This document shows, piece after piece, positions 1-16,226 of a stretch of DNA of 17,561 bases (within the stretch, counting starts at the first letter, position 1; each line of letters opens with the position of its first letter). Under the pieces are notes generated by a model. The model did not search any database. It was not told the origin of the DNA and was given only the letters and a program-made list of their open reading frames with translations. Source of the DNA: an uncultured Clostridia bacterium (lineage in GTDB: Bacteria; Bacillota; Clostridia; Christensenellales; Aristaeellaceae). A program made the position numbers and the translations under genes. The stretch lies in assembly GCA_934647235.1 (NCBI GenBank), contig CAKUFG010000038.1:1-17561 (forward strand). The letters are read 5' to 3'.

Positions 1-239
1 ATACCGGAGCAGCCGATGGTTTCCACCAGGGCTTCTTCGATCACGCCGTTTTTGACGTTCAGGGTCAGCTTGCAGGCGCCCTGCTGAGGAGCGCACCAGC
101 CAACGCCATGGGTATAGCCGGAAATATCGCTGATTTCCTTGGCCTGAATCCACTTGCCCTCTTCAGGGATGGGGGCGGGGCCATGGTTGGGGCCCTTCAT
201 CACGCATACCATTTCTTCGACTTCGCGAGAGTATTGCAT
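1..239 (-). CDS. NifU/IscU-like Fe-S cluster scaffold-domain protein, N-terminal 79 codons (3' end runs off the window)
   Basis: ATG at 239-237 lies 9 nt downstream of AAGGAGG (rc of 249-255). My translation is MQYSREVEEMVCVMKGPNHGPAPIPEEGKWIQAKEISDISGYTHGVGWCAPQQGACKLTLNVKNGVIEEALVETIGCSG. The Cys-containing motifs (GWCAPQQGAC, TIGCSG) resemble clostridial NifU-like scaffold proteins I recall. The ORF is absent from the track because it is truncated. Confidence 0.5.
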   Translation of the reverse strand, partial: MQYSREVEEMVCVMKGPNHGPAPIPEEGKWIQAKEISDISGYTHGVGWCAPQQGACKLTLNVKNGVIEEALVETIGCSG

Positions 240-284
240 GAAATGATTCCTCCTTCGGAATGAGTTGTGAACTTCCACCGGGTC

Positions 285-293
285 ATTATAGCA
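285..293 (-). promoter_or_regulatory. Extended -10 promoter (TGcTATAAT) for the NifU-like gene
   Basis: rc of 285-293 reads TGCTATAAT, about 45 nt upstream of the ATG at 239. No good -35 is present, which is acceptable for extended -10 promoters. Confidence 0.35.
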
Positions 294-344
294 TATTTCG
301 CGTCATAAAAAAAGGGGATATAGAAATTTATTCCCGTGTTATCG

Positions 345-388
345 ATTAAAAAAGCACCGCCTGCTTTTTTATTCCGCAAACGGTGCTT
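345..388 (-). terminator. Probable intrinsic terminator downstream of the GT-C gene
   Basis: On the minus strand AAGCACCG (rc of 381-388) pairs with CGGTGCTT (rc of 352-359) and is followed by TTTTTTAA. It sits 12 nt after the stop at 400-402. The 21-nt loop is large, so confidence is moderate. Confidence 0.4.
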
Positions 389-399
389 ATTTGAGCTGA

Positions 400-2517
400 T
401 TATTTTGTTGTATAAGAATTAATTATCAATTCTTCCGTTGAGACAATTGTAAATTTCCAAAACTCATTCTCTGTAAACGGCAAAGTAATTTCGTAGGTTT
501 GGCTTTGTCTTGTAGCCATAACTGTTTTAGACTCATTTCCAGCAGCAAAAGTTACCTCACAGCTATCCGCGGTGCTGCATCGCAGCGTAATTGTCAGCGT
601 TACTTCTCCTTTTTCCAGTATTCCTTTGTCAAATATCAGCAAAGAGCAAATATCGCCTTTACGAAGATAATAGGCATCTAAGCTTGCCAAAGCAGATTTC
701 AAGAATGGTTTTCCAGGTTCTATTTTTGCAACTGTATAATAGCCATTCTTCGTTTTATTCAAAACTACATTCGATGCGAATTCTACGTTTTCCGCTACAG
801 CAACGTCAAATACCAATGTATCCGTATCAATCAGCGGCAAATTCTCTGTATTAGGCGCTTGCACTAACGGCGTAAATGACGTATATACGCCGTTAGTTTC
901 AACCGCGTTTAAAAGCAGATTATTCACCACTACCATCTGTGCTGGCCGATGCAAATGTGTATCCAAAAGATAACCGCGGAAATCGTCATATAGATTATTA
1001 GTTACGATTACCACATCTTGATCTGCAATGATTTGCGCAATTTCCTGCGCATCCTGCTCTACTTCCCTTTCCGCTTGCCTCCGATTTGAATAGGTCATGC
1101 CACCGTTGATTAAGAATGAGGCAGCACATACTATGCAGGCCATTTTTTGCAGTTTCGCATTCCATCCCTTTTTGTATACAGTATACAAATAATAAACAGT
1201 AGCCAAAGACAGAATGCAAATCATCAGCGTCCCCAGCGTTTTGCCGGCGCGTTTTCCATAATAAGCATTGAGCGACGGCGCAGCAAAAATTCCATTGTCT
1301 GGAACCATATGAAAAGGACTGGGGAAAATAAAGAATGCTGCAAAAAAGGCCATTACAATAACCCACGTTTTGCTTGGGCGAACCCCTTTAAGCCGATCAT
1401 CCAACAATAAAACCGTCATCAACGGGAAATAATACATCAGATAACGCAAATGCACCGCCGAAGTTCCTAAAGATCCCGTAAAATTAAACGGAACAATCAA
1501 AATTGCAATGCCAACACAACTGCTTATTATTGCTACGACCAGTGTTTCCAATAACGTTTGCTGCTGACCCGGCAGCTTTTTCCTGCCAATCAGCGGCATG
1601 AGCACATATACGCCGCCGGTTCCAAATACAATCGCCGCAATATGAAACACAAAGCCCTGCGCCATGATGCCAGTATTGCGCCAATCCAACGTAGGAATTT
1701 GCTTTTCGTATAGATTCATCACGCTTGCAGCGCCAAAAAGCATATGATATGCAGCATATCCTACGCCAATGACCGTCCCAACTGCAGCAAGCCCCAGAAT
1801 GCTCCATTGAATGGCAGCACGCTCTTTTCTTTTGCACCCATTCAGCAGCAATACCAGCAAGAAACACACACCAAAGATAATACATACTGGTTTGATAAAA
1901 TATAGCAAACCCGTGAGCATGCCAAGCGCAACATAACGGCTGCCCTTTTGCTGCTGCGCACAAATATCTACCGCAAGCACAAAATTCCACATCATCAAAG
2001 GGTACAGCAAAGCTTCTGCTGTAAGATGCGTGGATAAACAGGTTTCAGGAATGAGCAATGTCAAAAGAACAACAACCCATATACCTGTTTTGCTCAATCC
2101 CATTTTCTTGCCAATTAGATATGCAGGGAATACCGAAGATGCCATCATCAACGCATTGTATAGCTGTATGGCACGATACAAGTTAACTCCTGCAGGCAAC
2201 GCAAACAATGGCAATAGCACCATTGGGTATAGCAAATACACATACTGTACCGGCTGCGCACGAAACATTACCTTTCCATTCGTGTATATATTGCGAGCCA
2301 GGTTAATGTATAATCCTTCATCAATATATACAGTTGGATTTGTAGAAGTCAGATAACTCAGTCCAAAGCGAATACCAGCTGTCAGCAAAAATAGCAATGG
2401 TAATAACACCTTTGGCTGCAACGCCAAAGAATATCTCGTTTTAGACCTCTTTCTCGCTTTTGTGCTCAGGCTTATGCTTGGCAAAGTATATTCATTCCTT
2501 TCGACCATTATTTCCAT
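400..2517 (-). CDS. GT-C fold, polyprenol-phosphate-sugar-dependent membrane glycosyltransferase (PMT_2/ArnT-like) with a ~230-aa soluble C-terminal domain
   Basis: The track gives a 721-codon ORF. Many hydrophobic helices cover the first ~470 aa. The first extracytoplasmic loop carries YIDEGLYINLARNIYTNG, the DE..Y...A motif typical of PMT_2/ArnT-type enzymes. I moved the start to ATG 2517 (MEIMVERNEY) because a near-consensus promoter lies inside the first 16 track codons. ATG 2508 is equally possible. Confidence 0.6.
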   Translation of the reverse strand: MEIMVERNEYTLPSISLSTKARKRSKTRYSLALQPKVLLPLLFLLTAGIRFGLSYLTSTNPTVYIDEGLYINLARNIYTNGKVMFRAQPVQYVYLLYPMVLLPLFALPAGVNLYRAIQLYNALMMASSVFPAYLIGKKMGLSKTGIWVVVLLTLLIPETCLSTHLTAEALLYPLMMWNFVLAVDICAQQQKGSRYVALGMLTGLLYFIKPVCIIFGVCFLLVLLLNGCKRKERAAIQWSILGLAAVGTVIGVGYAAYHMLFGAASVMNLYEKQIPTLDWRNTGIMAQGFVFHIAAIVFGTGGVYVLMPLIGRKKLPGQQQTLLETLVVAIISSCVGIAILIVPFNFTGSLGTSAVHLRYLMYYFPLMTVLLLDDRLKGVRPSKTWVIVMAFFAAFFIFPSPFHMVPDNGIFAAPSLNAYYGKRAGKTLGTLMICILSLATVYYLYTVYKKGWNAKLQKMACIVCAASFLINGGMTYSNRRQAEREVEQDAQEIAQIIADQDVVIVTNNLYDDFRGYLLDTHLHRPAQMVVVNNLLLNAVETNGVYTSFTPLVQAPNTENLPLIDTDTLVFDVAVAENVEFASNVVLNKTKNGYYTVAKIEPGKPFLKSALASLDAYYLRKGDICSLLIFDKGILEKGEVTLTITLRCSTADSCEVTFAAGNESKTVMATRQSQTYEITLPFTENEFWKFTIVSTEELIINSYTTK

Positions 2518-2521
2518 TTTT

Positions 2522-2549
2522 ATTATAGCGTTTATCTGGTATATGTCAA
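2522..2549 (-). promoter_or_regulatory. Near-consensus sigma-70/SigA promoter, TTGACA-16 nt-TATAAT
   Basis: rc of 2544-2549 is TTGACA and rc of 2522-2527 is TATAAT. The spacer is tataccagataaacgc (16 nt). The -10 ends 4 nt before ATG 2517. Confidence 0.55.
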
Positions 2550-2608
2550 TATTTAGGCATATCATCCTGTCATATAAGTACTTTTTATTGAAATACCCGC
2601 AGTGTCTC

Positions 2609-2637
2609 TTGAGATTTTAACCAATTAATGATATGAT
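2609..2637 (+). promoter_or_regulatory. Promoter for the GT2-GtrA/lepA/prfA transcription unit, TTGAGA-17 nt-TATGAT with a TGn extension
   Basis: TTGAGA at 2609-2614, a 17-nt spacer, TATGAT at 2632-2637, preceded by TGa at 2629-2631. It is back-to-back with the divergent minus-strand promoter. Confidence 0.5.
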
Positions 2638-2699
2638 ATAAAAGTTGAGGATTGCTCATTTTTACGCACTCAGAAAAAGCAAGGAGAATGGATTGCGCT

Positions 2700-3835
2700 A
2701 TGCAGGCAAAGCAACTATGCGTTCTGATTCCCTCCCTGGAGCCGGACGAGCGGCTTCCTGTTTATGTAGACGCGCTGCTGGCGGCGGATTTTGGGCAGAT
2801 CGTCATCGTCAACGACGGTTCCTCCGCCCAGTACGATGCGATTTTTGATTCGCTCGCCGCGCGGGAGCGCTGCGTGGTGCTCAAGCACGAGGTCAACCGC
2901 GGCAAGGGCCAGGCGCTGCGCACAGGCGTTGCCTATATCCGCGACCATACCGCCTTTTCAGGCGTGATCACCGCCGACGCGGACGGGCAGCATACGGTGC
3001 ACGATACCCTGCTGCTGGCCGACGCGATGGACGAAAAAAAGCCCGAACTGCTGCTGGGCTCGCGCGATTTTTCGCACAAGAACAAAAACATCCCCGGCCG
3101 CTCCCGCTTTGGCAATCGCGCCACCAGCACGGTATTCGCCCTGCTGTACGGACACTGGCTGCCCGATACGCAGACCGGCCTGCGCGCCGTCAGCCGCGCG
3201 TGCTTTGACGACCTGCTGGCCATCACGGGCGATCGCTTTGAGTATGAAATGAACATGCTCATCTATTTCTCCATCCACAAGATTCCCTTCAAGATCATCC
3301 CCATCGAAACCATTTATCTGGAAGAAAACAAGTCCTCGCACTTCCATCCCCTGCGCGATTCGTGGCGCATCTATAAGCTGCTGCTGGGCTCTTTTCTGCG
3401 CTTTTCGGCTGCGGCCATCGTATCCCTGCTGGTGGATTATGCCGTGTTGAGCCTGCTGATGCTGCTCTGGCACGATATGGATACGATCGTGCTCCCCGTT
3501 TTCGGGCTGCTTTTCAGCGCCAAGGCGCTCATTGCCACGCCCATTGCCCGCCTGTGCTCGGCCCCATGCAATTTCCTGCTGAACAAGAATTTCTCCTTTA
3601 AGGTAAAGGAAAGCCAAGGCGCAGCATGGCGCTATGCCGCGCTTGCCTTGGGCGTGCTGATCGTCACGACCTTGCTCTTTGGCTGGCTGAACCACTTTAT
3701 CCCCGCGCATCATGAGGGGCTGAGCCTGCTGCTCAAGGGCGCCATTGATATTGTGCTCTACTTTGTCAATTACCGCATTCAGCGCAACTGGGTATTCAAG
3801 GAAAAATCCCGCAAAAACGAAACGGAGTGTGCCTG

Positions 3836-3836
<1 letters not shown>
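2700..3836 (+). CDS. Bifunctional family-2 glycosyltransferase (GtrB/CsbB-like polyprenol-phosphate sugar synthase) fused to a GtrA-family membrane domain
   Basis: GT2 motifs are [23 protein letters not shown] and ITADADGQH. Hydrophobic helices follow, carrying [11 protein letters not shown] and [14 protein letters not shown] (GtrA-type signature). AAGGAG lies at 2681-2686. ATG 2700 (13-nt spacing) is preferred over ATG 2688 (1-nt spacing) and over the track TTG at 2652. Confidence 0.8.
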
Positions 3837-5641
<1,805 letters not shown>

Positions 5642-5655
5642 AAGCAATTAACTGC

Positions 5656-6726
5656 ATGGACGCTAAATATCTGGAAAAATTTGATTGGATGGCCCGGCGG
5701 CTGGAGGAGCTTTCCATCGCCGTGGCGCAGCCGGATATCATTGCCGATCTGCCGCGCTGGCAGTCGCTTCTGAGGGAGCGCGCCGCGCTGGAGCCGGCTG
5801 TTTCGGCGTACCGTGATTATCAGAAGCTGACGGGCGAGATTGCCGATGCGCGCGAATTATCCGAGGATCCGGAGCTTGGCGAGACCGCCCGTGAGGAGCT
5901 GAAGCGCCTGGAAGCGCAGGTTCCGCCGCTGGAGCAGGCGCTTTTGCTGCACCTGATTCCCCGCGATCCGGACGATGACCGCAACGTCATCCTGGAGGTG
6001 CGCGCGGGTGCGGGCGGTGATGAAGCCAGCCTGTTCGCCGCCATGCTGGTGCGCATGTATCTGCGCTATGCCGAGCGGCATGGGCTGACCGCCGCCGTGC
6101 TCAGCGTAAACGATACCGAAATCGGCGGGGTCAAGGAGGCCGTGCTCTCAGTCACCGGACGCGGCGCGTTCAGCCGCCTCAAATATGAAAGCGGCGTGCA
6201 CCGCATCCAGCGCGTGCCCGTCACCGAAGCCAACGGCAAAAAGCAAACCTCCACCGCCACCGTGGCCGTGCTGCCTGAAATGGAGGATGTGGAGGTCGAT
6301 ATCAAGCCCGACGATCTGCGCATTGATACCTACCGCGCCTCGGGCCACGGCGGGCAGTACATCAACCGCACGGACAGCGCTGTGCGCATCACCCATCTGC
6401 CCACCGGCCTGGTCGTTACCTGCCAGGATGAAAAGAGCCAGCTCAAGAACCGCGAGCAGGCCATGAAGGTGCTCAAGAGCCGCCTGTACGATCTGTACCG
6501 CACCAAGGCGGACAGCGAGTATGCCAGCAACCGCCGCGCGCAGGTGGGTACGGGCGAGCGCAACGAGCGCATCCGCACCTACAATTTCAACGAGGGCCGC
6601 GTGACCGATCACCGAATCGGGCTGACCCTGTATCGCGTGGACGCCATTGTGGACGGCGATCTGGACGAGATTATCGACGCGCTGACGCTGGACGAGCAGG
6701 CGCGCAGGCTACGGGAGCTGCGTTAA
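5656..6726 (+). CDS. prfA: Peptide chain release factor 1
   Basis: The RF1-type tripeptide anticodon PVT (RVPVTEANGK) and the GGQ motif (SGHGGQYINRTDSAVRITHLPTG) are both present. The ORF is 356 aa. No clear SD precedes ATG 5656, so ATG 5689 (MARRLEEL) is an alternative start. Confidence 0.9.
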   Translation: MDAKYLEKFDWMARRLEELSIAVAQPDIIADLPRWQSLLRERAALEPAVSAYRDYQKLTGEIADARELSEDPELGETAREELKRLEAQVPPLEQALLLHLIPRDPDDDRNVILEVRAGAGGDEASLFAAMLVRMYLRYAERHGLTAAVLSVNDTEIGGVKEAVLSVTGRGAFSRLKYESGVHRIQRVPVTEANGKKQTSTATVAVLPEMEDVEVDIKPDDLRIDTYRASGHGGQYINRTDSAVRITHLPTGLVVTCQDEKSQLKNREQAMKVLKSRLYDLYRTKADSEYASNRRAQVGTGERNERIRTYNFNEGRVTDHRIGLTLYRVDAIVDGDLDEIIDALTLDEQARRLRELR

Positions 6727-6785
6727 AGCCAGGCTCCCGCTTTAGACGCTTTGGGGGAGACGGGGGAACCGGAACGAGGGAAAAC

Positions 6786-6812
6786 GGTACTTTCTTGAGT
6801 CAAGAAAGTACC
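6786..6812. repeat. 27-nt perfect palindrome (13-bp stem), outer hairpin of the left arm
   Basis: GGTACTTTCTTGA g TCAAGAAAGTACC. On the minus strand it is followed by GTTTTCC. Confidence 0.85.
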
Positions 6813-7464
6813 AAAGAACCTGTGTTGTGGACGGGAAAGCTGCTGGTTTTAAGCTGGGAGTGGCCCTGGCCACCCGTGGCAGGGAAAATTCGCGTGTCCG
6901 GATCGGCGCAAGCGCCATCCGTCCCCTTGAATATTTCCCCTTTGGTCTGGCTTCGCCAGCCCTGCGCCGATTGCATCGGCGTGCCACGGGGGCGATGGTT
7001 GTACGCATTTGTCATTCGTAGCTATTTGCGATTGTTGGATAGAGCGGCCATCAAAAGGCTTCTCCTTGAGGAGAGGCTCCGCCGCAGGCGGTGGTGAGGT
7101 GTAGGCCATGCAATGGCCGTTAGCAAAGCTATATAATAGAGGTAACGCCGCTGCGGCGGCTACACCTCATCCGCTTCACTGCGTTCAGCACCTTCCCCTC
7201 CGAGGGGAAGGCTTGGGTGGATGGTCTTGCCGACTGCTGCCAATCGCTACGTTTGTTTTTCGTATCCAACTATGCCCCGTGGCACGCTGATCGCAGATCA
7301 GCGCAGGGCGTGCGCAGCACGATCATGGGGGAAAGCAGGAAACGAACGGAGGAAAGCTTGCTTTCATCCGGGCGGTTCAGGCTTTCACCTGCCACGGTGG
7401 CGGGCGGCAGTGCCGCCTTCCAATTTTATTCCAGCAGCTTTTTTGTCCACAATACCGGTTCTTT

Positions 7465-7491
7465 GTTACTTTCTTCACTGAAGAAAGTAAC
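7465..7491. repeat. 27-nt perfect palindrome (13-bp stem), outer hairpin of the right arm; terminator/attenuator-like on the + strand
   Basis: GTTACTTTCTTCA c TGAAGAAAGTAAC, followed by gTCTTTTCC. It lies 62 nt upstream of the topB SD. Confidence 0.85.
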
Positions 7492-7564
7492 GTCTTTTCC
7501 GTCTCCCTCGTCCCCCCGCGCCATTGAGCGCATTGCCTGTATTATTGAATGCCGAGGTGAAGCC

Positions 7565-9760
7565 ATGATCGTCGTCGTAGCGGAAAAGCCCAGCGTGGGC
7601 CGCGATATTGCCCGCGTGCTGGGCTGCAGAACAGCTGGCGAGGGCTGCCTGTCCGGTGAGGGCTACACCGTCACCTGGGCCGTAGGCCATCTGGTTACGC
7701 TGTGCGAGCCGGATGAAATAGACGAAAAATATAAAAAATGGCGCATGGCCGATCTGCCCATGCTGCCTGAAACCCTGCCCACCAAGGTAATCTCCAAAAC
7801 AAAAAAGCAGTTCACCATCGTCAAAAAGCTGATCAACGCCCCCGATACCGAGCGGCTGATCTGCGCCACCGACGCCGGGCGCGAGGGCGAACTGATCTTC
7901 TACTATATTTATCAGCAGGCCAAGTGCAAAAAGCCCGTCGATCGGCTGTGGATCTCCTCTATGACAGACGAGGCCATCCGCGAGGGCTTCGCCCAGCTCA
8001 AGCCCGACAGCGAGTACGAAGGGCTGCGCAAAAGCGCCGTCTGCCGTTCCGAGGCCGATTGGCTGGTGGGCATGAACGCCAGCCGCGCCTTCACCCTGCG
8101 TTATGACGTGCTGCTGTCCGTCGGCCGGGTGCAAACGCCCACGCTGGCCATCCTGGTTAAGCGCAGGCGAGAAATCGACAGCTTCAAGCCCGAGGAATAC
8201 TATACCGTCACGGCCAATTTCGGCGATTATACCGGCCTGTGGTTTGATGAAAAAGCCCAGGATGAAAAGACCGCTCAGCGCATCGCTGCCCGCGAGCGCG
8301 CGGAGGAAATCGCCCAGGCCGTGCGCAAAAAGCCCGCCACGGTGCGTTCTGCTCAAAGCGAGCTCAAACGCGAGCTGCCGCCGCAGCTGTATGATCTGAC
8401 CTCGCTGCAGCGCGACGCCAACCGCATGCTGGGCTTCACCGCCGATAAAACGCTGAAAATCGCCCAGGCGCTCTACGAAAAGTGGAAGCTGCTCACCTAT
8501 CCCCGCACGGACAGCCGCTATCTGCCCCTGGATATGGTGCCCAAGCTTTACCAGACACTCAAGGCGCTGCCCTCTCCCTACCGCGAGCTGACCGCCGGCA
8601 TGGAGCGCAAGGAGGACGGCAAGCTCTATATTTCAAAACGCATTTTTGATAACAGCAAGGTGTCCGATCACCATGCCCTGCTGCCCACGCCCAAGACGGC
8701 CAATCTGGATCAGCTGCCGCCCGACGAACGCGCGCTGTACGATCTGGTAGTGCGCCGCATGCTGGCCGCCTTCCATCCTGCCTATGAGTACGACGCGCTC
8801 AAGGTGATTACCGATTGCGAAGCCCACGCCTTCCGTTCCACCGGGCGCACGGTGCGCAATCTGGGCTGGAAGGCGCTGTATCAGCAGGATCAGCCCGCCA
8901 GGAAGACCCGCAGCCGTAAAAAGGGAAGCGACGCAGAGGAAGGCGACGAGGGCGCGCTGCCGCCGCTGCAGCCCGGCGATACGCGCACGGTGGAAAAGGC
9001 TGATGTGCAGCAATGCGCCACCAAGCCGCCCGCCCCGCATACGGATGCAAGCCTGCTGGCCGCCATGGAGCACGCGGGCCGCGATATTGAGGACGAGGCG
9101 CTGCGCGAATCGATGAAGGGCGCGGGCCTGGGCACCCCGGCCACGCGCGCGGCGATCATTGAGCGGCTGCTGCAGGTGGGCTATGCCCAGCGCCGGGGCC
9201 GCGCCATCAACGCCACCGATAAGGGCATGCAGCTCATCGCCATTGCGCCGGATGAAATTGCTTCCCCCGAAACCACCGGCAAGTGGGAGCTGGCGCTGGA
9301 TGAAATTGCCCGCAATCAGCGCGATACCCAGCGCTTTATGGAGGGCATCCGCCGCATGAGCGCCTTTCTGGTATCCTATGCGCGCGATAACGCCCCCAAT
9401 GTGGATTTTCCCGAGGACATGAAGCGCGGAAAGCGCGGCGCGCGGCGTTCCTCCGCCATGCCTGTGCTGGCGGATGTGGTATGCCCGCTCTGCGGCAAGC
9501 CTGTGCAGGAGTCGGCCCGCGCCTTTGGCTGCACGGATTGGCGCAACGGCTGCGCCTTTACCCTGTGGAAGGATTGCCTCACCCGCGCCGGAGGGCCGGA
9601 GCTGAACGTCAGGATCGTGCAGCTGCTGCTCAAGAACGGCTCGGTCAAGGGCAGCACCGGCGCCCTGGCCCTGGCGGACGGTTATCTCACCTTTACAAAA
9701 AACGGCGAGGACGCCCCTGCCGCGCGGGTAAATATCCGCTATCAGCGGCCCAATAAATAA
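7565..9760 (+). CDS. topB: DNA topoisomerase III (type IA) with a C-terminal zinc-ribbon region
   Basis: The N-terminus MIVVVAEKPSVGRDIARVLGC (Toprim) and TWAVGHLV are typical of Firmicutes TopB. Cys motifs CPLCGKPV...GCTDWRNGC lie near the C-terminus. GAGGTGA at 7554-7560 sits 4 nt before ATG 7565. The track start at 7217 is an in-frame open stretch running through the repeat. Confidence 0.9.
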   Translation: MIVVVAEKPSVGRDIARVLGCRTAGEGCLSGEGYTVTWAVGHLVTLCEPDEIDEKYKKWRMADLPMLPETLPTKVISKTKKQFTIVKKLINAPDTERLICATDAGREGELIFYYIYQQAKCKKPVDRLWISSMTDEAIREGFAQLKPDSEYEGLRKSAVCRSEADWLVGMNASRAFTLRYDVLLSVGRVQTPTLAILVKRRREIDSFKPEEYYTVTANFGDYTGLWFDEKAQDEKTAQRIAARERAEEIAQAVRKKPATVRSAQSELKRELPPQLYDLTSLQRDANRMLGFTADKTLKIAQALYEKWKLLTYPRTDSRYLPLDMVPKLYQTLKALPSPYRELTAGMERKEDGKLYISKRIFDNSKVSDHHALLPTPKTANLDQLPPDERALYDLVVRRMLAAFHPAYEYDALKVITDCEAHAFRSTGRTVRNLGWKALYQQDQPARKTRSRKKGSDAEEGDEGALPPLQPGDTRTVEKADVQQCATKPPAPHTDASLLAAMEHAGRDIEDEALRESMKGAGLGTPATRAAIIERLLQVGYAQRRGRAINATDKGMQLIAIAPDEIASPETTGKWELALDEIARNQRDTQRFMEGIRRMSAFLVSYARDNAPNVDFPEDMKRGKRGARRSSAMPVLADVVCPLCGKPVQESARAFGCTDWRNGCAFTLWKDCLTRAGGPELNVRIVQLLLKNGSVKGSTGALALADGYLTFTKNGEDAPAARVNIRYQRPNK

Positions 9761-9819
9761 AAAACGCGCCGTAAAATAAGAAAAAACGCCGTTGCTGGCA
9801 ATTCCAATCGCAATTTTTC

Positions 9820-9848
9820 TTGACTTGAAACCAACTCTATGCTATATA
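9820..9848 (+). promoter_or_regulatory. Promoter TTGACT-17 nt-TATATA for the aldo/keto reductase gene
   Basis: TTGACT at 9820-9825, spacer tgaaaccaactctatgc (17 nt), TATATA at 9843-9848. This leaves a leader of about 90 nt before ATG 9944. Confidence 0.5.
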
Positions 9849-9943
9849 CGAAATGAAAAGCCGCAAGCGTCAGGCGGACTTTGCAGGCGCGGGGAAGCGT
9901 GTGCTCTGATTACAGGGATGACAGTAAAAAGGAGAAAACCAGC

Positions 9944-11080
9944 ATGATTTACAAAGAATTTCAGGGATTGAAGCTATCTGCCCTTGGTATGGGCAACATG
10001 CGTCTGCCTACGCTGGAGGGCGACGACAGCCGCATCGACGAGGCTGCGGCCGAGCAGCTTCTGGATTACTGCATGGCCCACGGCGTCAACTATTACGATA
10101 CCGCCTGGGGCTATCACAGCGGCAATTCCGAGCTAGTGGTGGGCAAGCTGCTGGCCAGGTATCCGCGCGGCAGCTTCTACCTGGCCTCCAAGTTTCCCGG
10201 CTACAGCCTGAGCAACATGGGCAAGACGGAGGAAATCTTTGAAAAACAGCTGCAGAAGTGCCGCGTGGATTACTTTGATTTCTATCTGTTCCACAACGTG
10301 TGCGAGATGAACATCGACGCCTACCTGGATCCCAAGTACGGCACCTATGATTACCTGATGGCGCAAAAGCGCAGCGGCCGCATCCGCCACCTGGGCTTCT
10401 CCGCGCATGGCGATATTCCCACCATCCGCCGATTCCTGGAAGCCTATGGCAAGGATATGGAGTTTGCGCAGATCGAGCTGAATTATTATGACTGGAATTT
10501 CCAGAACGCCAAGGGCAAGCTGGAGCAGCTGCGGCAGTGGAACATCCCCGTATGGGTGATGGAGCCGGTGCGCGGCGGCCAGCTGGCTTCGCTTGCGCCC
10601 GAGGATGAAGCGCTGCTTAAGGCCGCCCGCCCCGATGAGAGTGTGCCCGCCTGGGCGTTCCGCTTTCTGCAAAGCCTGCCGGATGTTACCGTTACGCTGT
10701 CGGGCATGAGCAATCTGCAGCAGGTTAAGGAAAACATCGCTACCTACGAGCAGGCCAGGCCCCTCAATGAGCAGGAAACGGCGCTGGTGCTGTCCATTGC
10801 GGACGGCATGATCCGCCGCACCACGGTGCCCTGCACGGCCTGCCGCTACTGCGTAAGCCATTGCCCCAGGCACCTGCCCATTCCCGATCTGCTCAAATTG
10901 TACAACGAGGCCATGGTGGCGGGCTCGGGCATGTTCATCGCGCCCATGGCGCTGTCGGCCATTCCTGCCGGGCATCAGCCCTCCGCTTGTATAGCCTGCC
11001 ATAGCTGCGAAAAGGTCTGTCCCCAGCAGATTCATATTCCCGACGCGCTGGCGGATTTTGCCCGCCGGATGGGAAAGTAA
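9944..11080 (+). CDS. Aldo/keto reductase with a C-terminal 2x[4Fe-4S]-type cysteine domain (COG1453-like)
   Basis: The N-terminus MIYKEFQGLKLSALGMGNMRLP and YYDTAWGYHSG are AKR-like. Two CxxCxxCxxxCP motifs are present (CTACRYCVSHCP, CIACHSCEKVCP). AAAGGAG at 9928-9934 lies 9 nt before the ATG. The track start at 9881 lacks an SD. Confidence 0.8.
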   Translation: MIYKEFQGLKLSALGMGNMRLPTLEGDDSRIDEAAAEQLLDYCMAHGVNYYDTAWGYHSGNSELVVGKLLARYPRGSFYLASKFPGYSLSNMGKTEEIFEKQLQKCRVDYFDFYLFHNVCEMNIDAYLDPKYGTYDYLMAQKRSGRIRHLGFSAHGDIPTIRRFLEAYGKDMEFAQIELNYYDWNFQNAKGKLEQLRQWNIPVWVMEPVRGGQLASLAPEDEALLKAARPDESVPAWAFRFLQSLPDVTVTLSGMSNLQQVKENIATYEQARPLNEQETALVLSIADGMIRRTTVPCTACRYCVSHCPRHLPIPDLLKLYNEAMVAGSGMFIAPMALSAIPAGHQPSACIACHSCEKVCPQQIHIPDALADFARRMGK

Positions 11081-11096
11081 AAGCAGAAAGCGCGCG

Positions 11097-11126
11097 TTGA
11101 CTTATAAATCCGCTTCATGCTACAAT
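11097..11126 (+). promoter_or_regulatory. Promoter TTGACT-18 nt-TACAAT
   Basis: TTGACT at 11097-11102 and TACAAT at 11121-11126, about 24 nt upstream of ATG 11150. Confidence 0.5.
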
Positions 11127-11149
11127 ATCAGGACAAGGAGGCGAAAGCA

Positions 11150-11800
11150 ATGAAGCAAAAGCGTTTCGCGGCTTTTCTGATGGCGGCTGTCCTGCTGCTG
11201 TGCGCGGGCAGCGCGCAGGCGCTGGGCAATAAGATGATGGGCAATATCAAATACGGCGTGCCGGTGCCCTATGAGAACCTGGTGTATGGGTATGCGCTGA
11301 ACGTTCATGCGCGCTTTGATATGTACGGCGACGCTGTGATGGAGTACTACCTTAAGCAGCTTGACGAGGAGCAGGATGAGAACGATGATTATATCTATGA
11401 CGCGCGCGTCTGGCGCTCGCCGGATGCTAAATATTTGCTCGAAATCCAGGTGAAGGAGCCCACCTATGAAACCTTTGCGCAGGAGATTGAGAAGGCGCCG
11501 TATTATGCAGAAGAACTGCTGAAAAGGCAGGAGGATACGCAGAAGCAGCAGGTTAAGCAGCTGCACGACGGCATCCTGCGCGATACGCCTGCGGGACAGA
11601 TGCTGGAAATGGCCATATCCTATCTGACGACGGCGGATGACGACAGCACCGTGCCCACCACCGCTGTGTATTATGATTTTTACGCCAACGGCTATGAGTA
11701 TGTTTTTATCCTGACAAGCTTTAACGGCACCTATGAGGATACGCAAAAGCTGCTGGACAGCATCATGCAGACCGTAGCGATCTGGCAGGTGGCTGCGTGA
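11150..11800 (+). CDS. Secreted acidic protein of unknown function
   Basis: Signal peptide MKQKRFAAFLMAAVLLLCAGSAQA with an AxA cleavage site. AAGGAGG at 11135-11141 lies 8 nt before ATG 11150. I recognise no domain. Confidence 0.6.
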   Translation: MKQKRFAAFLMAAVLLLCAGSAQALGNKMMGNIKYGVPVPYENLVYGYALNVHARFDMYGDAVMEYYLKQLDEEQDENDDYIYDARVWRSPDAKYLLEIQVKEPTYETFAQEIEKAPYYAEELLKRQEDTQKQQVKQLHDGILRDTPAGQMLEMAISYLTTADDDSTVPTTAVYYDFYANGYEYVFILTSFNGTYEDTQKLLDSIMQTVAIWQVAA

Positions 11801-12459
11801 TGGAAAAGCCCGTTCGCAGCGCGGCGGCCTTTGATTTTGACGGCACGCTCATCCGCGGCGACAGCATTGCGCAGCTGGTGATCTACGGCCTGAAAAAGGG
11901 CAGAATCAGCCTGCCTGCGGCGCTTTGGTCGGCGCTGGCCGGCGTGCTGTATCATATGCATCTGGTGGGCGAAATGACGGCCAAGCGCGCGGGGCACGGC
12001 TTCCTGGCGCGTATGGAAGCGGCGGAGCGCGAGGCCTTCCTTCAGAACTTTGCCGGCCTGATCTGCAAAAAAATCCGCCCCCAGGGGCTGGAGGCGATCA
12101 GAAAGCATCAAAGCCAGGGCGATGCGGTGATCCTGTGCAGCGCCAGCTGTGCGTGCTATATGCGCCATGTGGCGCGGTATCTGGGCGTGGACGCGCTGCT
12201 GTGTACGCCCACGGACGCGCAGGGGCAGCCTCAGCCGCCTAACTGCAAGCGTGGCGAAAAGGTGCGCCGCATCACACAGTGGTTGGAGAAGCAGAGCAGC
12301 AATATCAGCGCGCTGCGTACCGCCTATGGCGACAGTGCGGGTGACGTGCAGATGCTGTCCGCCTGCAAAACTCCTGTGCTGGTGCATCCCAGGCGCGCGC
12401 TGCGCAGGGCCTTCCCAAAGGCCGAGCGCGTAAGCTGGCCCGAGCCGAATCATCCATAA
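11800..12459 (+). CDS. HAD-superfamily hydrolase, subfamily IB (PSPase-like)
   Basis: AAFDFDGTLIRGDS (DxDxT motif I) and YGDSAGD (motif IV-like). ATG 11800 shares its A with the upstream TGA at 11798-11800. GTG 11797 is the track alternative. Confidence 0.75.
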   Translation: MEKPVRSAAAFDFDGTLIRGDSIAQLVIYGLKKGRISLPAALWSALAGVLYHMHLVGEMTAKRAGHGFLARMEAAEREAFLQNFAGLICKKIRPQGLEAIRKHQSQGDAVILCSASCACYMRHVARYLGVDALLCTPTDAQGQPQPPNCKRGEKVRRITQWLEKQSSNISALRTAYGDSAGDVQMLSACKTPVLVHPRRALRRAFPKAERVSWPEPNHP

Positions 12460-12467
12460 AAACAACT

Positions 12468-12512
12468 GAGCCCTCGCATTTTATCTGCGAAGGCTCGGCT
12501 TTCTTTATTTTT
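12468..12512. terminator. Bidirectional intrinsic terminator between convergent genes
   Basis: GAGCCCTCGC (12468-12477) pairs with GCGAAGGCTC (12487-12496), giving a 10-bp stem with one C/A mismatch. It is followed by ggcTTTCTTTATTTTT on the + strand and preceded by an A-rich run that gives TTGTTTTTA on the - strand. Confidence 0.65.
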
Positions 12513-12957
12513 CCTTCTTTTCCCGCCAATGCTGCAGCTGGGGCAGCTGTGCCTCAAAGTAGGCGCGCGCCTGCTCGGCAGGCCAATTCTCATTGGACAT
12601 GTGCTCCACCAGAAAATCGGTCAGCGTTTGCAGATCCTGATAGGCAAACTGCCCGTCGGCATAGCACCACTTGCAGTAGTCCTCGTTGAAGGCGCCGTCC
12701 GGCTCGCGGCTGAGCAGCGAATCCTCCAGCGGCATGCCGCAGCACTGGCAGATCAGCTTGCGCGGCGCGCCCAGCAGCGTGTTGATCGATACGTCAAACA
12801 GCGCGGACAGGAGCTTGAGCGTGTCCGGATTGGGCACGGTTTCGCCGTTTTCCCAGCGGGAAACCGCCTGACGGGTAACAAATACCTTTTCGGCCAGCTC
12901 ATCCTGAGACAGGCCGTTTTTTATGCGCAGGGACAGGATTACATCCTTGGTAGCCAT
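12505..12957 (-). CDS. XRE-family HTH transcriptional regulator with a C-terminal zinc-ribbon domain
   Basis: LSQDELAEKVFVTRQAVSRWENGETVP (HTH_3-like), followed by CQCCGMPL...YCKWCY (CxxC...CxxC). GAGGTGA lies 6 nt before ATG 12957. Confidence 0.8.
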   Translation of the reverse strand: MATKDVILSLRIKNGLSQDELAEKVFVTRQAVSRWENGETVPNPDTLKLLSALFDVSINTLLGAPRKLICQCCGMPLEDSLLSREPDGAFNEDYCKWCYADGQFAYQDLQTLTDFLVEHMSNENWPAEQARAYFEAQLPQLQHWREKKEK

Positions 12958-13025
12958 TGCTTATCACCTCGCGTATAGAATACCGCAGATTACGGGATAA
13001 AACAAGCAACTATCTGTTGCGCAGG

Positions 13026-14000
13026 TTAATTCTGATGGGCGATCTGCTGCTCCGTGATCAGCGGATAGCGAATCAGTGCGGAGCCGTTCAGGTTCTCGCG
13101 GTGCATATCCACGGCGGTGATCTGCCTGTTTTCGTAGGTGGTGTAATAGTAAATGCCGCGCGCGGCGTTGAAGCAGGAGGTGTACAGGGTGATTTCATAT
13201 TGCCCGTCGCGTACTTCACAGCAGCCGCGCTGCTGCTCCACCGCCCCTAATATATGGAAAAACTGGCTGACGCTTTCGGTTTCCGAATTGCCGGAGGCGG
13301 CATTCATCCGCGTGAAAGCCACCCGCACAAAGCGCGATGCGGAGGACAGATCGCCCGGCAGCCCCAGCGCGCCCATGCCGCGGCTGTAGGGAGCCAGCGG
13401 CAGCTGCGGCGCAAAGCGGTTTTCAGGCTGCCTGGGGGAAAGGCTCATATAGTTGTTCAGCTGAAATAGCTGCTGCGGAAAGGGCGGATTGTTGGTCAGC
13501 ACGCCCACCGGGTTATCATAGATGTGCAGCCCATCAGCCATGGATTCAATCACCACGGCCTGATGCTGATCGGCCAGCAGCCAGTGCAGCTGCGCGGCGG
13601 GAAGCTGCGCGCTGAAGGGCGTGCCGACCAGATTGAGCCGCGCCAGCCTGTCGCGAGCCTCCGCTACGCTGGCGCACTGCCCCAGAAGATAGGGGATCAG
13701 CTCAAACTGCGCCACGTTTTCGCGGCCTGGAATCACATCGGCATAGGCGGCGCTGCCCACAAAATTCAGCCCCGCCATGCACAGGCCATGTTCATTCATG
13801 GCATCGTAATACAGCGGATAATCCTGCGCCACATGCGCCATGCCGATCATGGCATAGGGATGCTCCAGCAGTCCGGCATGGCGAAACGCAAAGGCATAGC
13901 CGCGCGGGGTGATCGTCACCTCGTCGCCATAGGAAAACTCATAATCCAGCGTTCGGCCAAAGTAAAAGTCGCGGGTTTGATAGGTTGCCGCCGTGCACAT
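13026..14000 (-). CDS. bsh: Choloylglycine (bile salt) hydrolase, Ntn-hydrolase family
   Basis: The protein starts MCTAATY (Cys2 nucleophile). It carries GRTLD, VLTNNPPF, LPGDLSSASRFVRVAF and YYYTTYENRQITAVDMHRENLNG, which closely parallel the Clostridium perfringens CBAH sequence as I recall it. Length is 324 aa. Confidence 0.9.
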   Translation of the reverse strand: MCTAATYQTRDFYFGRTLDYEFSYGDEVTITPRGYAFAFRHAGLLEHPYAMIGMAHVAQDYPLYYDAMNEHGLCMAGLNFVGSAAYADVIPGRENVAQFELIPYLLGQCASVAEARDRLARLNLVGTPFSAQLPAAQLHWLLADQHQAVVIESMADGLHIYDNPVGVLTNNPPFPQQLFQLNNYMSLSPRQPENRFAPQLPLAPYSRGMGALGLPGDLSSASRFVRVAFTRMNAASGNSETESVSQFFHILGAVEQQRGCCEVRDGQYEITLYTSCFNAARGIYYYTTYENRQITAVDMHRENLNGSALIRYPLITEQQIAHQN

Positions 14001-14027
14001 GCGCCGTCGTCCTCATTTCTTTTTTGA

Positions 14028-14792
14028 TTAGCTTTTGCTGTTTGCCCCTGCGCTATGCAGCCTGCCCGCATAGCAGCGGGTGATATAAGGATAGGCAACT
14101 GTGCCGTCCTGGCAGTAAGCGTCAAACAGCTTTTCCAGCGCGGCGCGATAGGCGGCATAGCCGTCCTCCTGCGGCGCGGGGGCAAAGGAGGAGGACAGGC
14201 TGCGCAGCACAAAGGCTTCGCGGTCGTAAAGCTGGAGATAATCCAGCGAAATCAGCTGATAATCTCCGCCGAAGAAGCTGCGAAAGGTTGCGTCGTCAAA
14301 ATTCAGCCCGTTGGAAAAGCCCCGAAAGCGCGGGCAGTATTGGCGGTTTATGGCATAGTTTTCCGCAATCAGCGGGCTGGCTTCATCGCGCACGTTCCAG
14401 ATCAGCAGCACGCGCCCGTTTGAACGCAGCAGCCGCAGGCATTCTGACCGGAACACGGCAGGATCAAACCAGTGAAACGCCTGCGCGGCGGTGATCACAT
14501 CCACGCTGCAATCGGGCAGGGGAATGCTCTCGGCGCTGCCGCACAGGGGAGACAAGATGACGTCTGCCTGCATGGAGGCGCGCATATCGTCGTTTGGCTC
14601 CACAGCATATACTTTGCCAACATAGGCGGCCAGTTGCCTGGAAAAGATGCCCGTACCCGCGCCTACATCCGCGGCGATATCCGTGGGGGCAAGCAGCTCG
14701 GCGCTTTGCAGGCGCGCAAATAACGCCGGCGGATAGGCAGGCCGCCCCTGCTGGTACACGCCGCCTTTGTGATCAAACTGCCGCTCGTTCAT
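14028..14792 (-). CDS. Class I SAM-dependent methyltransferase (Methyltransf_11-like)
   Basis: Motif I is DIAADVGAGTGIFSRQLA. I set the start at ATG 14792 (MNERQFDHKGG) because GGAGGA lies 7 nt upstream. The track start at 14897 would run through the upstream terminator. Confidence 0.75.
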   Translation of the reverse strand: MNERQFDHKGGVYQQGRPAYPPALFARLQSAELLAPTDIAADVGAGTGIFSRQLAAYVGKVYAVEPNDDMRASMQADVILSPLCGSAESIPLPDCSVDVITAAQAFHWFDPAVFRSECLRLLRSNGRVLLIWNVRDEASPLIAENYAINRQYCPRFRGFSNGLNFDDATFRSFFGGDYQLISLDYLQLYDREAFVLRSLSSSFAPAPQEDGYAAYRAALEKLFDAYCQDGTVAYPYITRCYAGRLHSAGANSKS

Positions 14793-14826
14793 GCCAGAAT
14801 CCTCCGTAAAAAGAATGCTATCTTTT

Positions 14827-14855
14827 ATTATAGCCGATTCTGGTTGAAGCGTAAA
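14827..14855 (-). promoter_or_regulatory. Candidate promoter TTTACG-17 nt-TATAAT for the methyltransferase-bsh operon
   Basis: rc of 14850-14855 is TTTACG and rc of 14827-14832 is TATAAT, with a 17-nt spacer. It overlaps the U-tail of the upstream terminator. Confidence 0.4.
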
Positions 14856-14880
14856 GCAAAAGCCCGCCGGAAAGGCGGGC
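14853..14880 (-). terminator. Intrinsic terminator of the HMA gene
   Basis: GCCCGCC (14862-14868) pairs with GGCGGGC (14874-14880) around a 5-nt loop. On the minus strand it is followed by TTTTGCTTT. It lies 27 nt after the stop at 14907. Confidence 0.75.
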
Positions 14881-14906
14881 TGAGGCTTGGCGGGCAACGG
14901 GCTGCA

Positions 14907-15164
14907 TCAGCGCTTGAACATGCCAAACAGCCCCTTCTTTTCAAAGGGCCGCAGGGTTACGTCTGTTACGGTGTAGCCGGTATCACCGATGGCTTTGCGC
15001 AGGGCGGCCTCATCCAGCGGGCCATCGGACAGGATAACCGCCTGCCCCTTGCTGTGGGAAGCGGACACTTTTTTGATGTTAAACTTGCTGCGGATCACAT
15101 CGCTGACATGCGCTTCGCACATGCCGCACATCATACCGTCAATTTTTACGGTGGTTTCAATCAT
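14907..15164 (-). CDS. Heavy-metal-associated (HMA) domain protein, CopZ-like metallochaperone
   Basis: The 85-aa protein carries GMMCGMCEAHV (MxCxxC metal-binding motif) in a ferredoxin-like-sized domain. AAAGGAG lies upstream of ATG 15164. Confidence 0.8.
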   Translation of the reverse strand: MIETTVKIDGMMCGMCEAHVSDVIRSKFNIKKVSASHSKGQAVILSDGPLDEAALRKAIGDTGYTVTDVTLRPFEKKGLFGMFKR

Positions 15165-15214
15165 GGGAGACAGCTCCTTTCAAAGCAATGATTAGATTTC
15201 TCTAACCGATGCGT

Positions 15215-15243
15215 AGTATACAACACGGAAGGGGATGTGTCAA
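15215..15243 (-). promoter_or_regulatory. Strong promoter TTGACA-17 nt-TATACT for the HMA gene
   Basis: rc of 15238-15243 is TTGACA and rc of 15215-15220 is TATACT, with a 17-nt spacer. Confidence 0.6.
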
Positions 15244-15245
15244 GA

Positions 15246-15281
15246 TAAAAACCCCGCCGGATGTCTTACCACCTGGCGGGG
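15246..15281 (-). terminator. Intrinsic terminator of the low-GC secreted-protein gene
   Basis: CCCCGCCGG (15252-15260) pairs with CCTGGCGGGG (15272-15281). On the minus strand the hairpin is followed by TTTTTAT. Confidence 0.7.
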
Positions 15282-15305
15282 GAATGCGTTCAGCGCAAAG
15301 GCGCG

Positions 15306-16226
15306 TCACGGCGTGGACGATTTCTCGCTGTTTTGAAAGTAGGGCGTCAGCAATTGACTATTTGCAGCCCAAGGATGCGTTTTGCACCAGGCTTCAAACA
15401 CTGGTTTCCATTCGGTTAGGTATGCTTCAGCTTCTGCTTGTGAAAGATTTCCACTGAAAAGCTTATCGTATTTAGATATTTGCTCATACCAATCGTCTCC
15501 GTATACTGAATCAAAAAAACTTTGATCTTCTGTAAAGTAAGATGTGTAATCCTGCTGAGCCGGAGTTAGGCTCATGCAGCTGCCGTCATAACCATATGCC
15601 GCCTTCCAGGCTACCGCGCCATTGCTGTAAGCGTATACGATCCAGACGGGGATTTCACCGCTGTTAAAGTGCCGCTCAAACAAGAACTTTGCCTGATAGC
15701 TGAACTTTTCCGGCGCTAAGCCATATTCCGTCGCCATACCATCCTTCATTTTCTCGATAACAGCGCTTTCCTGTATATCGCTGGGCAAAGGCGTTACCTC
15801 TGTGCCACAAAGCATAATATCTTCCGATTCGCCGGCCTCATAGTGAGCGCCATGTGCTTGCCAGTACACCAGATCTCCATTTCGGCTAAGATATAGCAAA
15901 TGAAAGCCTCGGTGTTGACCGTTATATCCAGGAAAGGTTTTTACATGAACCTGCCACTTGGCGGCTTCATCAGCTACGTATACATTCTTTCCGTTAATAT
16001 TCCGCAAGCTCTGATGCTGCAGTAACCGGATATTCATTTGTGCTATCTGAAGTGTTTCAAAAGGGATACCGCACTTCACCGAGAAAAATGCCGCTGCACG
16101 GGCGTGTACTTCTTCTATCGTCAGATCGTCAGGACCTGGTTTGAGCTCTACTTCAGTATCTGCCAATGCGCCTGCCGTCAGGCAAAGCAGCAGAATCGTT
16201 ATCAATAAAACAAGCGTCTTTTTCAT
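15306..16226 (-). CDS. Secreted protein of unknown function, low-GC gene
   Basis: Signal peptide MKKTLVLLITILLLCLTAGALA with an AxA site. AGGAGGA lies 8 nt before ATG 16226. The 306-aa protein appears to contain two similar alpha/beta modules, and I recognise no family. Confidence 0.65.
   Translation of the reverse strand: MKKTLVLLITILLLCLTAGALADTEVELKPGPDDLTIEEVHARAAAFFSVKCGIPFETLQIAQMNIRLLQHQSLRNINGKNVYVADEAAKWQVHVKTFPGYNGQHRGFHLLYLSRNGDLVYWQAHGAHYEAGESEDIMLCGTEVTPLPSDIQESAVIEKMKDGMATEYGLAPEKFSYQAKFLFERHFNSGEIPVWIVYAYSNGAVAWKAAYGYDGSCMSLTPAQQDYTSYFTEDQSFFDSVYGDDWYEQISKYDKLFSGNLSQAEAEAYLTEWKPVFEAWCKTHPWAANSQLLTPYFQNSEKSSTP

Follow-up and report, generated by a model that had tools for sequence, protein, structure and literature searches.

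A dispersed, structured fold-back repeat between the genes of uncultured human-gut Clostridia, with base pairing conserved within its arms

REPINs are inverted doublets of REP (repetitive extragenic palindromic) sequences which form hairpins "in ssDNA or mRNA" (ssDNA, single-stranded DNA) and in which "compensatory changes ... are common"; they also occur as defunct singlets, and a clover has been proposed as an alternative to the hairpin (PMC3116915). Here we describe a fold-back element in a stretch of 17,561 nucleotides from an uncultured Clostridia bacterium (contig CAKUFG010000038.1 of assembly GCA_934647235.1, positions 1 to 17,561; this whole stretch is called the window). The element, 764 bp long (6754-7517), lies in the non-coding gap that separates prfA (5656-6726) from the gene for a type IA topoisomerase (7565-9760), and inverted-repeat search and arm-to-arm alignment both show that it aligns with its own reverse complement, with a centre near 7133. 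It is a large imperfect inverted repeat of one arm (6754-7132) against another (7134-7517). We lean towards the reading that it belongs to a dispersed, non-coding, mosaic fold-back repeat family of uncultured human-gut Clostridia (Oscillospiraceae-like), resembling a very large REPIN or MITE (miniature inverted-repeat transposable element). The family with its copy density, the intergenic position, the insertion relative to a close relative, the covariation, the deletion junctions and the unlike alleles of paired arms are all demonstrated below.

The evidence that carries this reading begins with base pairing, which is conserved within the arm. In an alignment (A1) of 51 non-redundant arms (<96% identical to each other) from about 120 loci, RNAalifold finds 39 pairs in seven helices. 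Standard pairs fill 98.4% of 1975 cells, compared with 87.5 +/- 0.5% in shuffles (0/500), and the covariation score is 0.288 versus 0.107 in shuffles (0/500), falling to <=0.112 when partners are slid by 1-3 columns. Both sides have changed with the pair kept in 15 of the 39 pairs, across 5 helices, and in Watson-Crick-defined helices only 2.6% of cells are non-Watson-Crick. Stems varying without compensation, or hairpins absent from the copies, were looked for in this larger alignment, and the opposite was seen: no arm that retains a given part lacks the hairpin belonging to it. The features of the element are as follows (no strand is assigned except to the two tails).

6754-7517: whole fold-back element, two inverted arms of ~380 nt with an A+T-rich centre near 7133 (arm alignment and inverted repeats)
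6754-6785, + strand: left outer tail, degenerate G-rich octads, GGGGACGA-like, ending ACG
6786-6812: left terminal hairpin, allele GGTAC/GTACC, a 13-bp palindrome; allele found in 36 family arms
6861-6872: left hairpin 3, allele GTGGCC..GGCCAC
6873-6992: left multi-branch domain, closed by the long-range helix 6873-6883/6982-6992 and holding hairpins 6900-6920, 6947-6959 and 6965-6981
6900-6920: left hairpin 5, GGATCGGCG-CAAG-CGCCATCC
6947-6959: left hairpin 6, CTGGC-TTC-GCCAG; the opposite strand, CTGGCGAAGCCAG, contains GCGAAGC
6965-6981: left hairpin 7 (the inner hairpin of the original prediction), CGCCGAT-tgc-ATCGGCG
7040-7230: central core, built around the A+T-rich centre AGCTATATAATAG; each arm has CTTCTCC..GGAGA(G/A)G hairpins, and there are two small G+C hairpins
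7275-7400: right multi-branch domain, closed by 7275-7284/7390-7399 and holding hairpins 7285-7303, 7309-7321 and 7348-7369
7285-7303: right hairpin 7, CGCTGATC-gca-GATCAGCG, allele TGATC; allele found in 18 of 51 aligned arms
7309-7321: right hairpin 6, CGTGC-GCA-GCACG, allele CGTGC; GCGCAGC on the + strand
7348-7369: right hairpin 5, GGAGGAAAG-CTTG-CTTTCATCC, allele AAAG
7403-7417: right hairpin 3, GGCGGC-agt-GCCGCC
7465-7491: right terminal hairpin, allele GTTAC/GTAAC, the commonest in the family (100 arms)
7492-7517, + strand: right outer tail, a C-rich mirror image of the left tail

The original prediction had paired hairpins of the left half with hairpins of the right, and all of them are present at the coordinates given there, in equivalent positions of the one large inverted repeat. 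The outer hairpins, GGTACTTTCTTGA/TCAAGAAAGTACC (6786-6798/6800-6812) and GTTACTTTCTTCA/TGAAGAAAGTAAC (7465-7477/7479-7491), have 13-nt arms that are 100% complementary in both; they differ at stem positions 2 and 12, and each change is compensated in the other half-stem. The inner hairpins (hairpin 7) differ by exchange of a C-G pair for T-A and by one added pair, and the third couple (hairpin 3; TGGCC-ct-GGCCA on the left) consists of unrelated sequences that are each self-complementary. Two occurrences of the hairpin motif were counted in the whole window, compared with 0.00 expected (200 shuffles). Covariation extends beyond the hairpins first noticed, to those at 6900-6920/7348-7369 and 6947-6959/7309-7321 and to the long-range helix joining 6873-6883 with 6982-6992. 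In the terminal stem, position 2 is UA in 35, GC in 13 and AU in 2 of the aligned arms (CG also occurs in a wider census), position 4 is AU in 37 and UA in 13, and position 12 is GC in 28 and CG in 19; for the left terminal hairpin the covarying pairs stand at alignment columns 55/81, 57/79 and 65/71. The long-range helix (RNAalifold columns 170-180/286-297), whose domain also appears in single-sequence folds, has halves ~105 nt apart, and four of its pairs have changed on both sides (CCGTGGCA/TGCCACGG <-> CGCAGGGCA/TGCCCTGCG). Hairpin 5 has five stem alleles, GGCG, AAAG, GGAGC, GGAGT and GAAGC, all self-complementary, and hairpin 7 has three, CGAT, TGATC and CCAGC; in each, 3 of 4 pairs covary. 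Hairpin 6 has two, CTGGC and CGTGC (UA/GC at 27:24, GC/UA at 27:24), around a conserved loop, and hairpin 3 has two main alleles plus compensated variants such as GTAGCC..GGCTAC. Each window arm also folds better than its shuffles (z = -3.5 to -6.3).

At both ends stand perfect 12-13-bp dyads whose centres measure 1-7 bp, bordered by the invariant flanks ACG and CAAAGAA, as one would see if the palindromes were double-stranded binding sites for a dimeric protein, such as operators or recombinase core sites. Yet at least five symmetric dyad variants coexist in one genome and even in one element, a single protein would not impose paired changes on positions that are degenerate, and the covariation of long-range and irregular helices cannot come from a dyad site. 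We consider this the most improbable of the explanations weighed here.

Coding is excluded because no open reading frame (ORF) inside the gap matches Pfam and the indels in A1 are not in multiples of three. The claim of the original prediction that selection acts on pairing, rather than on coding or primary sequence, is supported as regards pairing and coding, but some loops and linkers are conserved in primary sequence as well. Its claim of compensatory change between the two arms needs a different wording: the changes are matched, but they did not arise in place, being alternative alleles common to dozens of copies. Because the differences between arms are such shared alleles, there have been fewer compensation events, and earlier ones, than the cell counts imply. 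Selection is not formally separated here from hairpin-templated repair or survivorship. The corresponding alternative invokes no selection: intra-strand template switching (quasipalindrome correction), together with gene conversion among the many copies, would transfer a change from one half-stem to the other and so keep the stems perfect, and the alleles would be neutral by-products. Near-perfect palindromes with very short loops are favoured substrates of template switching in studies of E. coli quasipalindromes, and the stems of this family are of that kind; moreover, rearrangement junctions, insertions of a small module (module B, below) and allele swaps all fall at hairpins, and at one locus hairpin 3 has switched allele between ~100% identical flanks. 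However, compensated changes are found also in the helix whose halves lie ~105 nt apart, conversion should homogenise arms, yet the arms of one element differ as random arms do and carry unlike alleles, and repair alone does not predict GNA loops conserved across different stem alleles. An origin by mutation alone is in our view quite unlikely.

The two arms of an element proved to be as different as arms drawn from the family. Arms of the same element are 73-90% identical (mean 79%), compared with a mean of 81.5% for random arms of different elements, and each allele of the window arms recurs in many other copies. At the terminal hairpin the alleles are unlike in 33 of 35 elements and like in 2, although allele frequencies predict 36% like; counted by independent loci, the rule holds in about 16-17 of 18. 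Hairpin 5 is unlike in 18 elements and like in none (27% like expected), and exactly one GTTAC end is present in 31 of 35 elements. The unlike arms seen in the window therefore follow a family rule. The two arms are not duplicates that diverged in place. Three explanations for the rule were considered. Small palindromes shared by both arms create direct repeats that delete the intervening DNA, so that only pairs with unlike alleles last; or the ends must be distinguishable for the element to function; or short-read assemblers break at near-perfect inverted repeats and the rule reflects assembly bias. Two contigs that resemble long-read assemblies (L201 and L203) also carry unlike alleles. Arm-to-arm (rod) pairing was examined as a conserved feature and rejected: the two arms of an element do not match in linker subfamily and are identical to the same degree as random pairs.

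A lone terminal hairpin on contig L083 (about 4946-4972) has mismatched halves, GATTC...GCACC, and lies between a G-rich and a C-rich tail; this chimeric type was seen once versus 209 normal ends. It is probably the remnant of a whole element that collapsed by recombination between its end hairpins.

The unit of the family is an arm of ~390 nt, composed of a G-rich tail, a terminal hairpin of 12-13 bp with the invariant flanks already mentioned, a multi-branch domain of ~120 nt (a 9-10-bp long-range closing helix around three hairpins) and core hairpins at the inner end. A profile built from the two window arms (nhmmer), which matches the window at 6754-7132 (+) and 7517-7134 (-), finds 240 arm copies in 837 kb of human-gut contigs. 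Among these are 41 head-to-head arm pairs of 152-815 bp in total length, falling into rough size classes. True solo arms also exist; they end at a conserved ...GACGGATGAGGGGGAA followed by unique DNA, have different hairpins at their two ends, and show no terminal inverted repeats and no evident duplication. At their inner end is a G-rich motif similar to the tail octads. A census of 187 ends gave 22 variants of the terminal hairpin, few of them imperfect, including GTTAC/GTAAC, GGTAC/GTACC, GTTTC/GAAAC, GATTC/GAATC, GCTTC/GAAGC and GTTCC/GGAAC. The outer tail is present in nearly all family arms, with octads varying in number and sequence. Within the central core, GAGGTGTAG (7097-7105) pairs with CTACACCTC (7160-7168), and the core is missing from shorter family members.

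The hosts are human-gut bacteria. Human-gut metagenomes are the source of the contigs whose RF1 is identical to that of the window; the element is present on these contigs at 97-100% identity, and several end inside it. An exact 22-nt motif of the arm, searched in 185,579 species representatives, occurs in six contigs of one 'Clostridiales bacterium' metagenome-assembled genome (MAG) and in one Oscillospiraceae MAG; a second arm motif occurs in at least 120 contigs, nearly all of which belong to human-gut metagenomes. Many contigs break off within a family copy. Copies are intergenic at every locus examined, occupying gaps between housekeeping genes and abutting gene ends; one lies between pgk and tpiA. 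The neighbourhood of the window copy is likewise ordinary chromosome, with lepA, glycosyltransferase genes and a bile-salt-hydrolase-like gene. Two repeat copies, at 6394-6607 and 10594-10772 of L024 (IMGVR_UViG_3300029718_000400), lie on a contig filed as viral; the contig may be wrongly classified chromosomal DNA or else a prophage from the same lineage of hosts. A loose pattern scan of viral contigs gave 60 matches of which only this one was real, the pattern being too low in complexity, and blastn of the element against plasmid and phage collections gave no match.

The same locus in a close relative is without the element. In L199, whose RF1 is 91% identical, the gene order is the same, only 36 bp separate prfA from topB, and the sequence is again homologous to the window from 25 nt ahead of the topoisomerase start codon. 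Because of this short gap the element is an insertion and not ancestral at the locus; the inserted stretch is at most 6727-7539. Within the window's species the site is always occupied, and the gap measures 847, 882 or 957 bp. In L202 (11100-11954) the gene downstream of the element is gyrB/parE-like, compared with the topoisomerase gene in L201 and L203, and the right arm is partly deleted; the element marks a rearrangement (synteny) breakpoint there.

Once in place, elements change chiefly in length. Orthologous sites whose flanks are 96-100% identical form about 19 groups; none of the sites is empty, and in about half of the groups the element differs in length, for example 740 vs 113, 657 vs 389, 618 vs 300 and 557 vs 120 bp. 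Three such pairs, with flanks 99-100% identical, are:

L132 4653-5270 and L139 4251-4550
L011 6737-7393 and L138 1193-1581
L126 2745-3484 and L160 6132-6244

Aligned base by base, the first two show clean symmetric central deletions whose product is a shorter palindrome. The junctions lie in short direct repeats made by the same small palindrome being present in both arms, e.g. CTGGC-TTC-GCCAG / CTGGC-GAA-GCCAG. Central deletions at hairpin-derived repeats, because they leave shorter palindromes, explain the nested size series. At one orthologous locus with flanks of ~100% identity, hairpin 3 has exchanged one of its two alleles for the other, a sign of conversion among copies. Two further observations concern single loci. 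A 1077-bp copy in L175 (2165-3241) has a tandem duplication of ~190 bp of the central core, and between near-identical strains the right tails of L132 and L139 have 4 differences in ~30 nt, with almost none in the remaining shared element.

Whether the constraint is felt by DNA or RNA was approached through strand bias. On the inward-reading strand G·U occurs in 20 and A·C, the equivalent of G·U for the other strand, in 13 of 1823 Watson-Crick-helix cells, from which no strand can be called, and consensus folding energies are similar on both strands; the test has little power because a paired element puts both arm senses on every transcript. The loops are more suggestive. In 50 of 51 arms the loop of hairpin 6 is TTC, TGC or TAC, which the outward strand reads as GAA, GCA or GTA, and the hairpin's core GCGNAGC is invariant while the outer stem covaries (A1 columns 250-262); the loop of hairpin 7 is mostly GCA across three stem alleles (columns 271-285). 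Read from the centre outwards, both loops are GNA in almost all arms. The heptamer d(GCGNAGC) is a classic example of an extraordinarily stable mini-hairpin in DNA, and loops of three bases are more usual in DNA hairpins than in functional RNAs. The GCGNAGC triloops are thus a hint of ssDNA, but module B has GCA and GUAA/GCAA loops in the opposite sense, which speaks against that hint.

These observations bear on the possibility that the repeat is a host-beneficial, cis-acting structured RNA in neighbouring mRNAs, serving in 3'-end protection, as a processing or RNase III site or as an insulator between cistrons; selection on the RNA fold would then account for the covariation, and spread by recombination or transposition would be secondary. 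Copies inside operons that need read-through (pgk-arm-tpiA), occupation of the site in all strains compared, covariation that includes a long-range helix and the failure to find a transposase would all fit such a role, as would classic stable RNA loops (outward reading gives G(CUUG)C in hairpin 5, inward reading GUAA/GCAA in module B) and window ends that match a simple outward-reading terminator scan. However, the element is absent from the same site in L199, and a change from 113 to 740 bp at one site between near-identical strains implies that most of it is dispensable. Neither the G·U versus A·C counts nor the similar energies of the two strands betray an RNA strand, there is no Rfam match, most loops are of 3 nt, and the family consensus after the terminal hairpin is C-rich and not U-rich, so that the terminator look of the window is not a family feature. 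We regard a structured RNA of this kind as unlikely, though it has more in its favour than the other alternatives.

The terminator-like ends also invite the idea of two divergently transcribed, paralogous small RNA (sRNA) genes of ~350 nt, with a central promoter region and the outer hairpins as outward terminators. The scan matches at 6813-6785 (-) and 7464-7492 (+), the A+T-rich centre contains TATAAT, and each arm, as noted, folds better than shuffles. But a promoter scan of the region found no promoter-like site, and the centre is unconserved and is the first part to be lost in shorter members, which keep their outer ends. The two terminator-like matches compare with 1.8 expected in shuffles. 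The terminal stem is A+T-rich, and in most copies it is followed by C-rich tails of the CGTCCCC type, not by a U tract, so that intrinsic termination, which the window ends pass in a simple scan, was rejected as being at chance level and not a family feature. We think a pair of sRNA genes very improbable; both it and the dyad-site alternative fail on family-level data. Searches of the window for known RNAs were negative too: Rfam 15 gave no match at gathering score (best sub-threshold, 13-17 bits), and a tRNA/tmRNA scan found none.

Returning to the fold-back repeat, its best reading is as selfish or commensal repeat DNA that lies between genes and is tolerated there. We infer that the pairing constraint reflects selection on ssDNA, in replication or transposition, and/or on read-through RNA, and that a trans-supplied enzyme recognising the folded ends, HUH/RAYT-like, spreads the repeat. 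Each arm keeps its capacity to fold on itself as a single strand, and the persistence of the repeat, and probably its spread, would depend on that fold. Stems change only by double changes that compensate each other, and the few self-complementary alleles of each stem recombine freely among copies. Most elements consist of two arms head to head, and there are solo arms as well. Unlike alleles in the two arms would weaken arm-to-arm pairing and remove the short direct repeats through which a palindrome collapses; where direct repeats remain, slippage would remove the centre and keep the symmetry, so that the palindrome would be continuously trimmed.

Several points weigh against this reading. 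No transposase was found in or beside any copy, and tblastn of 0.95 Mb of loci with IS608 TnpA and E. coli RAYT, using approximate queries, gave nothing below E = 0.29. No direct repeat that could be a target-site duplication is evident at L199, which is a single empty site with a spacer too diverged to place the junctions. Among strains of one species there is length polymorphism only, with no presence/absence, and because of this recent transposition is not demonstrated. The unlike-allele rule may be inflated by assembler breaks, and several of the counted elements are orthologous (about 18 independent loci). The covarying cells are inherited alleles, 2-6 per helix, and so represent few independent compensation events. 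In folding calculations the full strand prefers the arm-to-arm rod, at -425 vs -324 kcal/mol as RNA and -223 vs -173 as DNA; in that case local hairpins would arise kinetically, during exposure of the strand. An insertion sequence (IS) of 1.2 kb with a helix-turn-helix and rve transposase, found in two contigs of the window's species, at a different place in each (L201 5717-6922 and L203 14241-15446, approximate), was rejected as a parent, its ends, CATAGGTAACACAAA / TTTGTGTAACCTATG, being unrelated to the repeat.

Autonomous copies were sought as well. No family copy encloses an ORF, and no autonomous IS with the ends of the element was seen in the family loci examined. Two candidates dissolved on inspection: the widest-spaced arm pair (L118 163-2618) is actually two separate elements around a FAD-binding gene, and the long copy in L175 owes its length to the core duplication.

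A nearly invariant three-hairpin module of ~93 nt, module B (ATAGCGCCGCCGCAGGCGGCTGAGGGCGCGCAATTTTGYAAATTGCCGCCCGAAACCCGCGCTTGCCGYAAGGCAGNAGCGCGGGGCGTAC), was met in 19 BLAST matches, one of them partial. Its sites include the following, among others:

L165 4434-4509
L160 5959-6034
L126 2666-2741
L118 3621-3696 and 2622-2697
L180 4207-4282
L014 1763-1838

Its position is precisely the terminal hairpin's loop, so that the hairpin is split into halves, e.g. GATTCTTTCTTGGAGCC / module / AAGGAAAGAATC, and is predicted to fold as a four-way junction on the host stem. A search of module B against Rfam gave no match. Module B is either a tiny mobile element targeting the hairpin loop or an optional expansion segment. 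A bolder reading, which we offer only tentatively and think improbable as a whole, is that the arm is a new kind of structured mobile module, of multi-hairpin ssDNA (or RNA) with at least six covarying helices and invariant GCGNAGC loops, that an enzyme reading the fold rather than the sequence spreads it, that arms dock head to head and persist only as pairs with unlike alleles, and that module B specifically colonises the loop of the terminal hairpin. If true, this would be a nested, structure-targeted mobile system without a known counterpart in Firmicutes.

The family offers a clean natural data set on a bacterial repeat whose conserved property is its secondary structure and neither its sequence nor its coding, with hundreds of copies, several alleles per stem and a long-range helix. 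It shows how long palindromes survive in a bacterial chromosome, by unlike alleles in the arms and by symmetric loss of the centre through slippage. It also breaks metagenome assemblies of an abundant uncultured gut lineage and marks synteny breakpoints, and its recognition should aid assembly, strain typing and annotation. Should the element be moved by an enzyme that reads its fold, this would be a candidate for a new ssDNA recombinase of human-gut origin.

The literature, searched by topic and by sequence string, yielded no description of this repeat family. The family is previously undescribed, but its kind, structured intergenic repeats, is familiar. Unusual are its architecture, with 390-nt arms bearing at least six conserved helices, the unlike-allele rule, the symmetric deletion series and the mini-element in the terminal loop. 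Like REPINs and other REP-based mosaics (BIMEs), the element is high in copy number and extragenic, has two inverted palindromic ends that form a long hairpin, undergoes compensatory changes, and occurs as singlets beside doublets and in mosaic combinations of motifs. Unlike them, it is 5-10 times longer, its arms of ~390 nt having six or more hairpins compared with ~20-40 nt for REP; its 27-nt terminal palindrome is flanked by ACG and CAAAGAA, with no GTAG-type head; it has G-rich octad tails and a Firmicutes host; and RAYT is unmatched in the 0.95 Mb of loci searched with approximate queries.

Bacterial stem-loop repeat families have reportedly been surveyed by Petrillo (2006) and Cozzuto (2008). 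With MITEs and fold-back repeats (Correia/NEMIS, ERIC, RUP, BOX) the element shares a non-coding nature, a length below 1 kb, inverted-repeat ends, intergenic position, modularity, size variants and presumed co-transcription with neighbouring genes. Its absence from the orthologous site of a relative, an insertion polymorphism between species (L199), is a further likeness. It differs in that the whole element, and not the termini alone, is an inverted repeat, that no target-site duplication is detectable at the one, diverged empty site, and that the loci examined hold no parent IS with matching ends; to our knowledge, its intra-arm covariation with a long-range helix goes far beyond what is usually reported for MITEs.

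Solo arms with different end hairpins, no terminal inverted repeats and no evident duplication, and a hairpin with invariant short flanks, recall IS200/IS605 elements and PATEs, and this architecture is as expected for ssDNA transposition by an HUH enzyme. However, neither TnpA nor TnpB was found in the 0.95 Mb (the TnpA query being approximate), Rfam gave no omega-RNA-type match, and head-to-head arms are not a feature of IS200/IS605. With integron attC sites and the CTX-phage attP hairpin, which are read as folded ssDNA, the element shares conservation of structure rather than sequence, in imperfect palindromes. It differs from them in having no integrase or Xer context and no cassettes, in being much larger, and in being flanked by core housekeeping genes.

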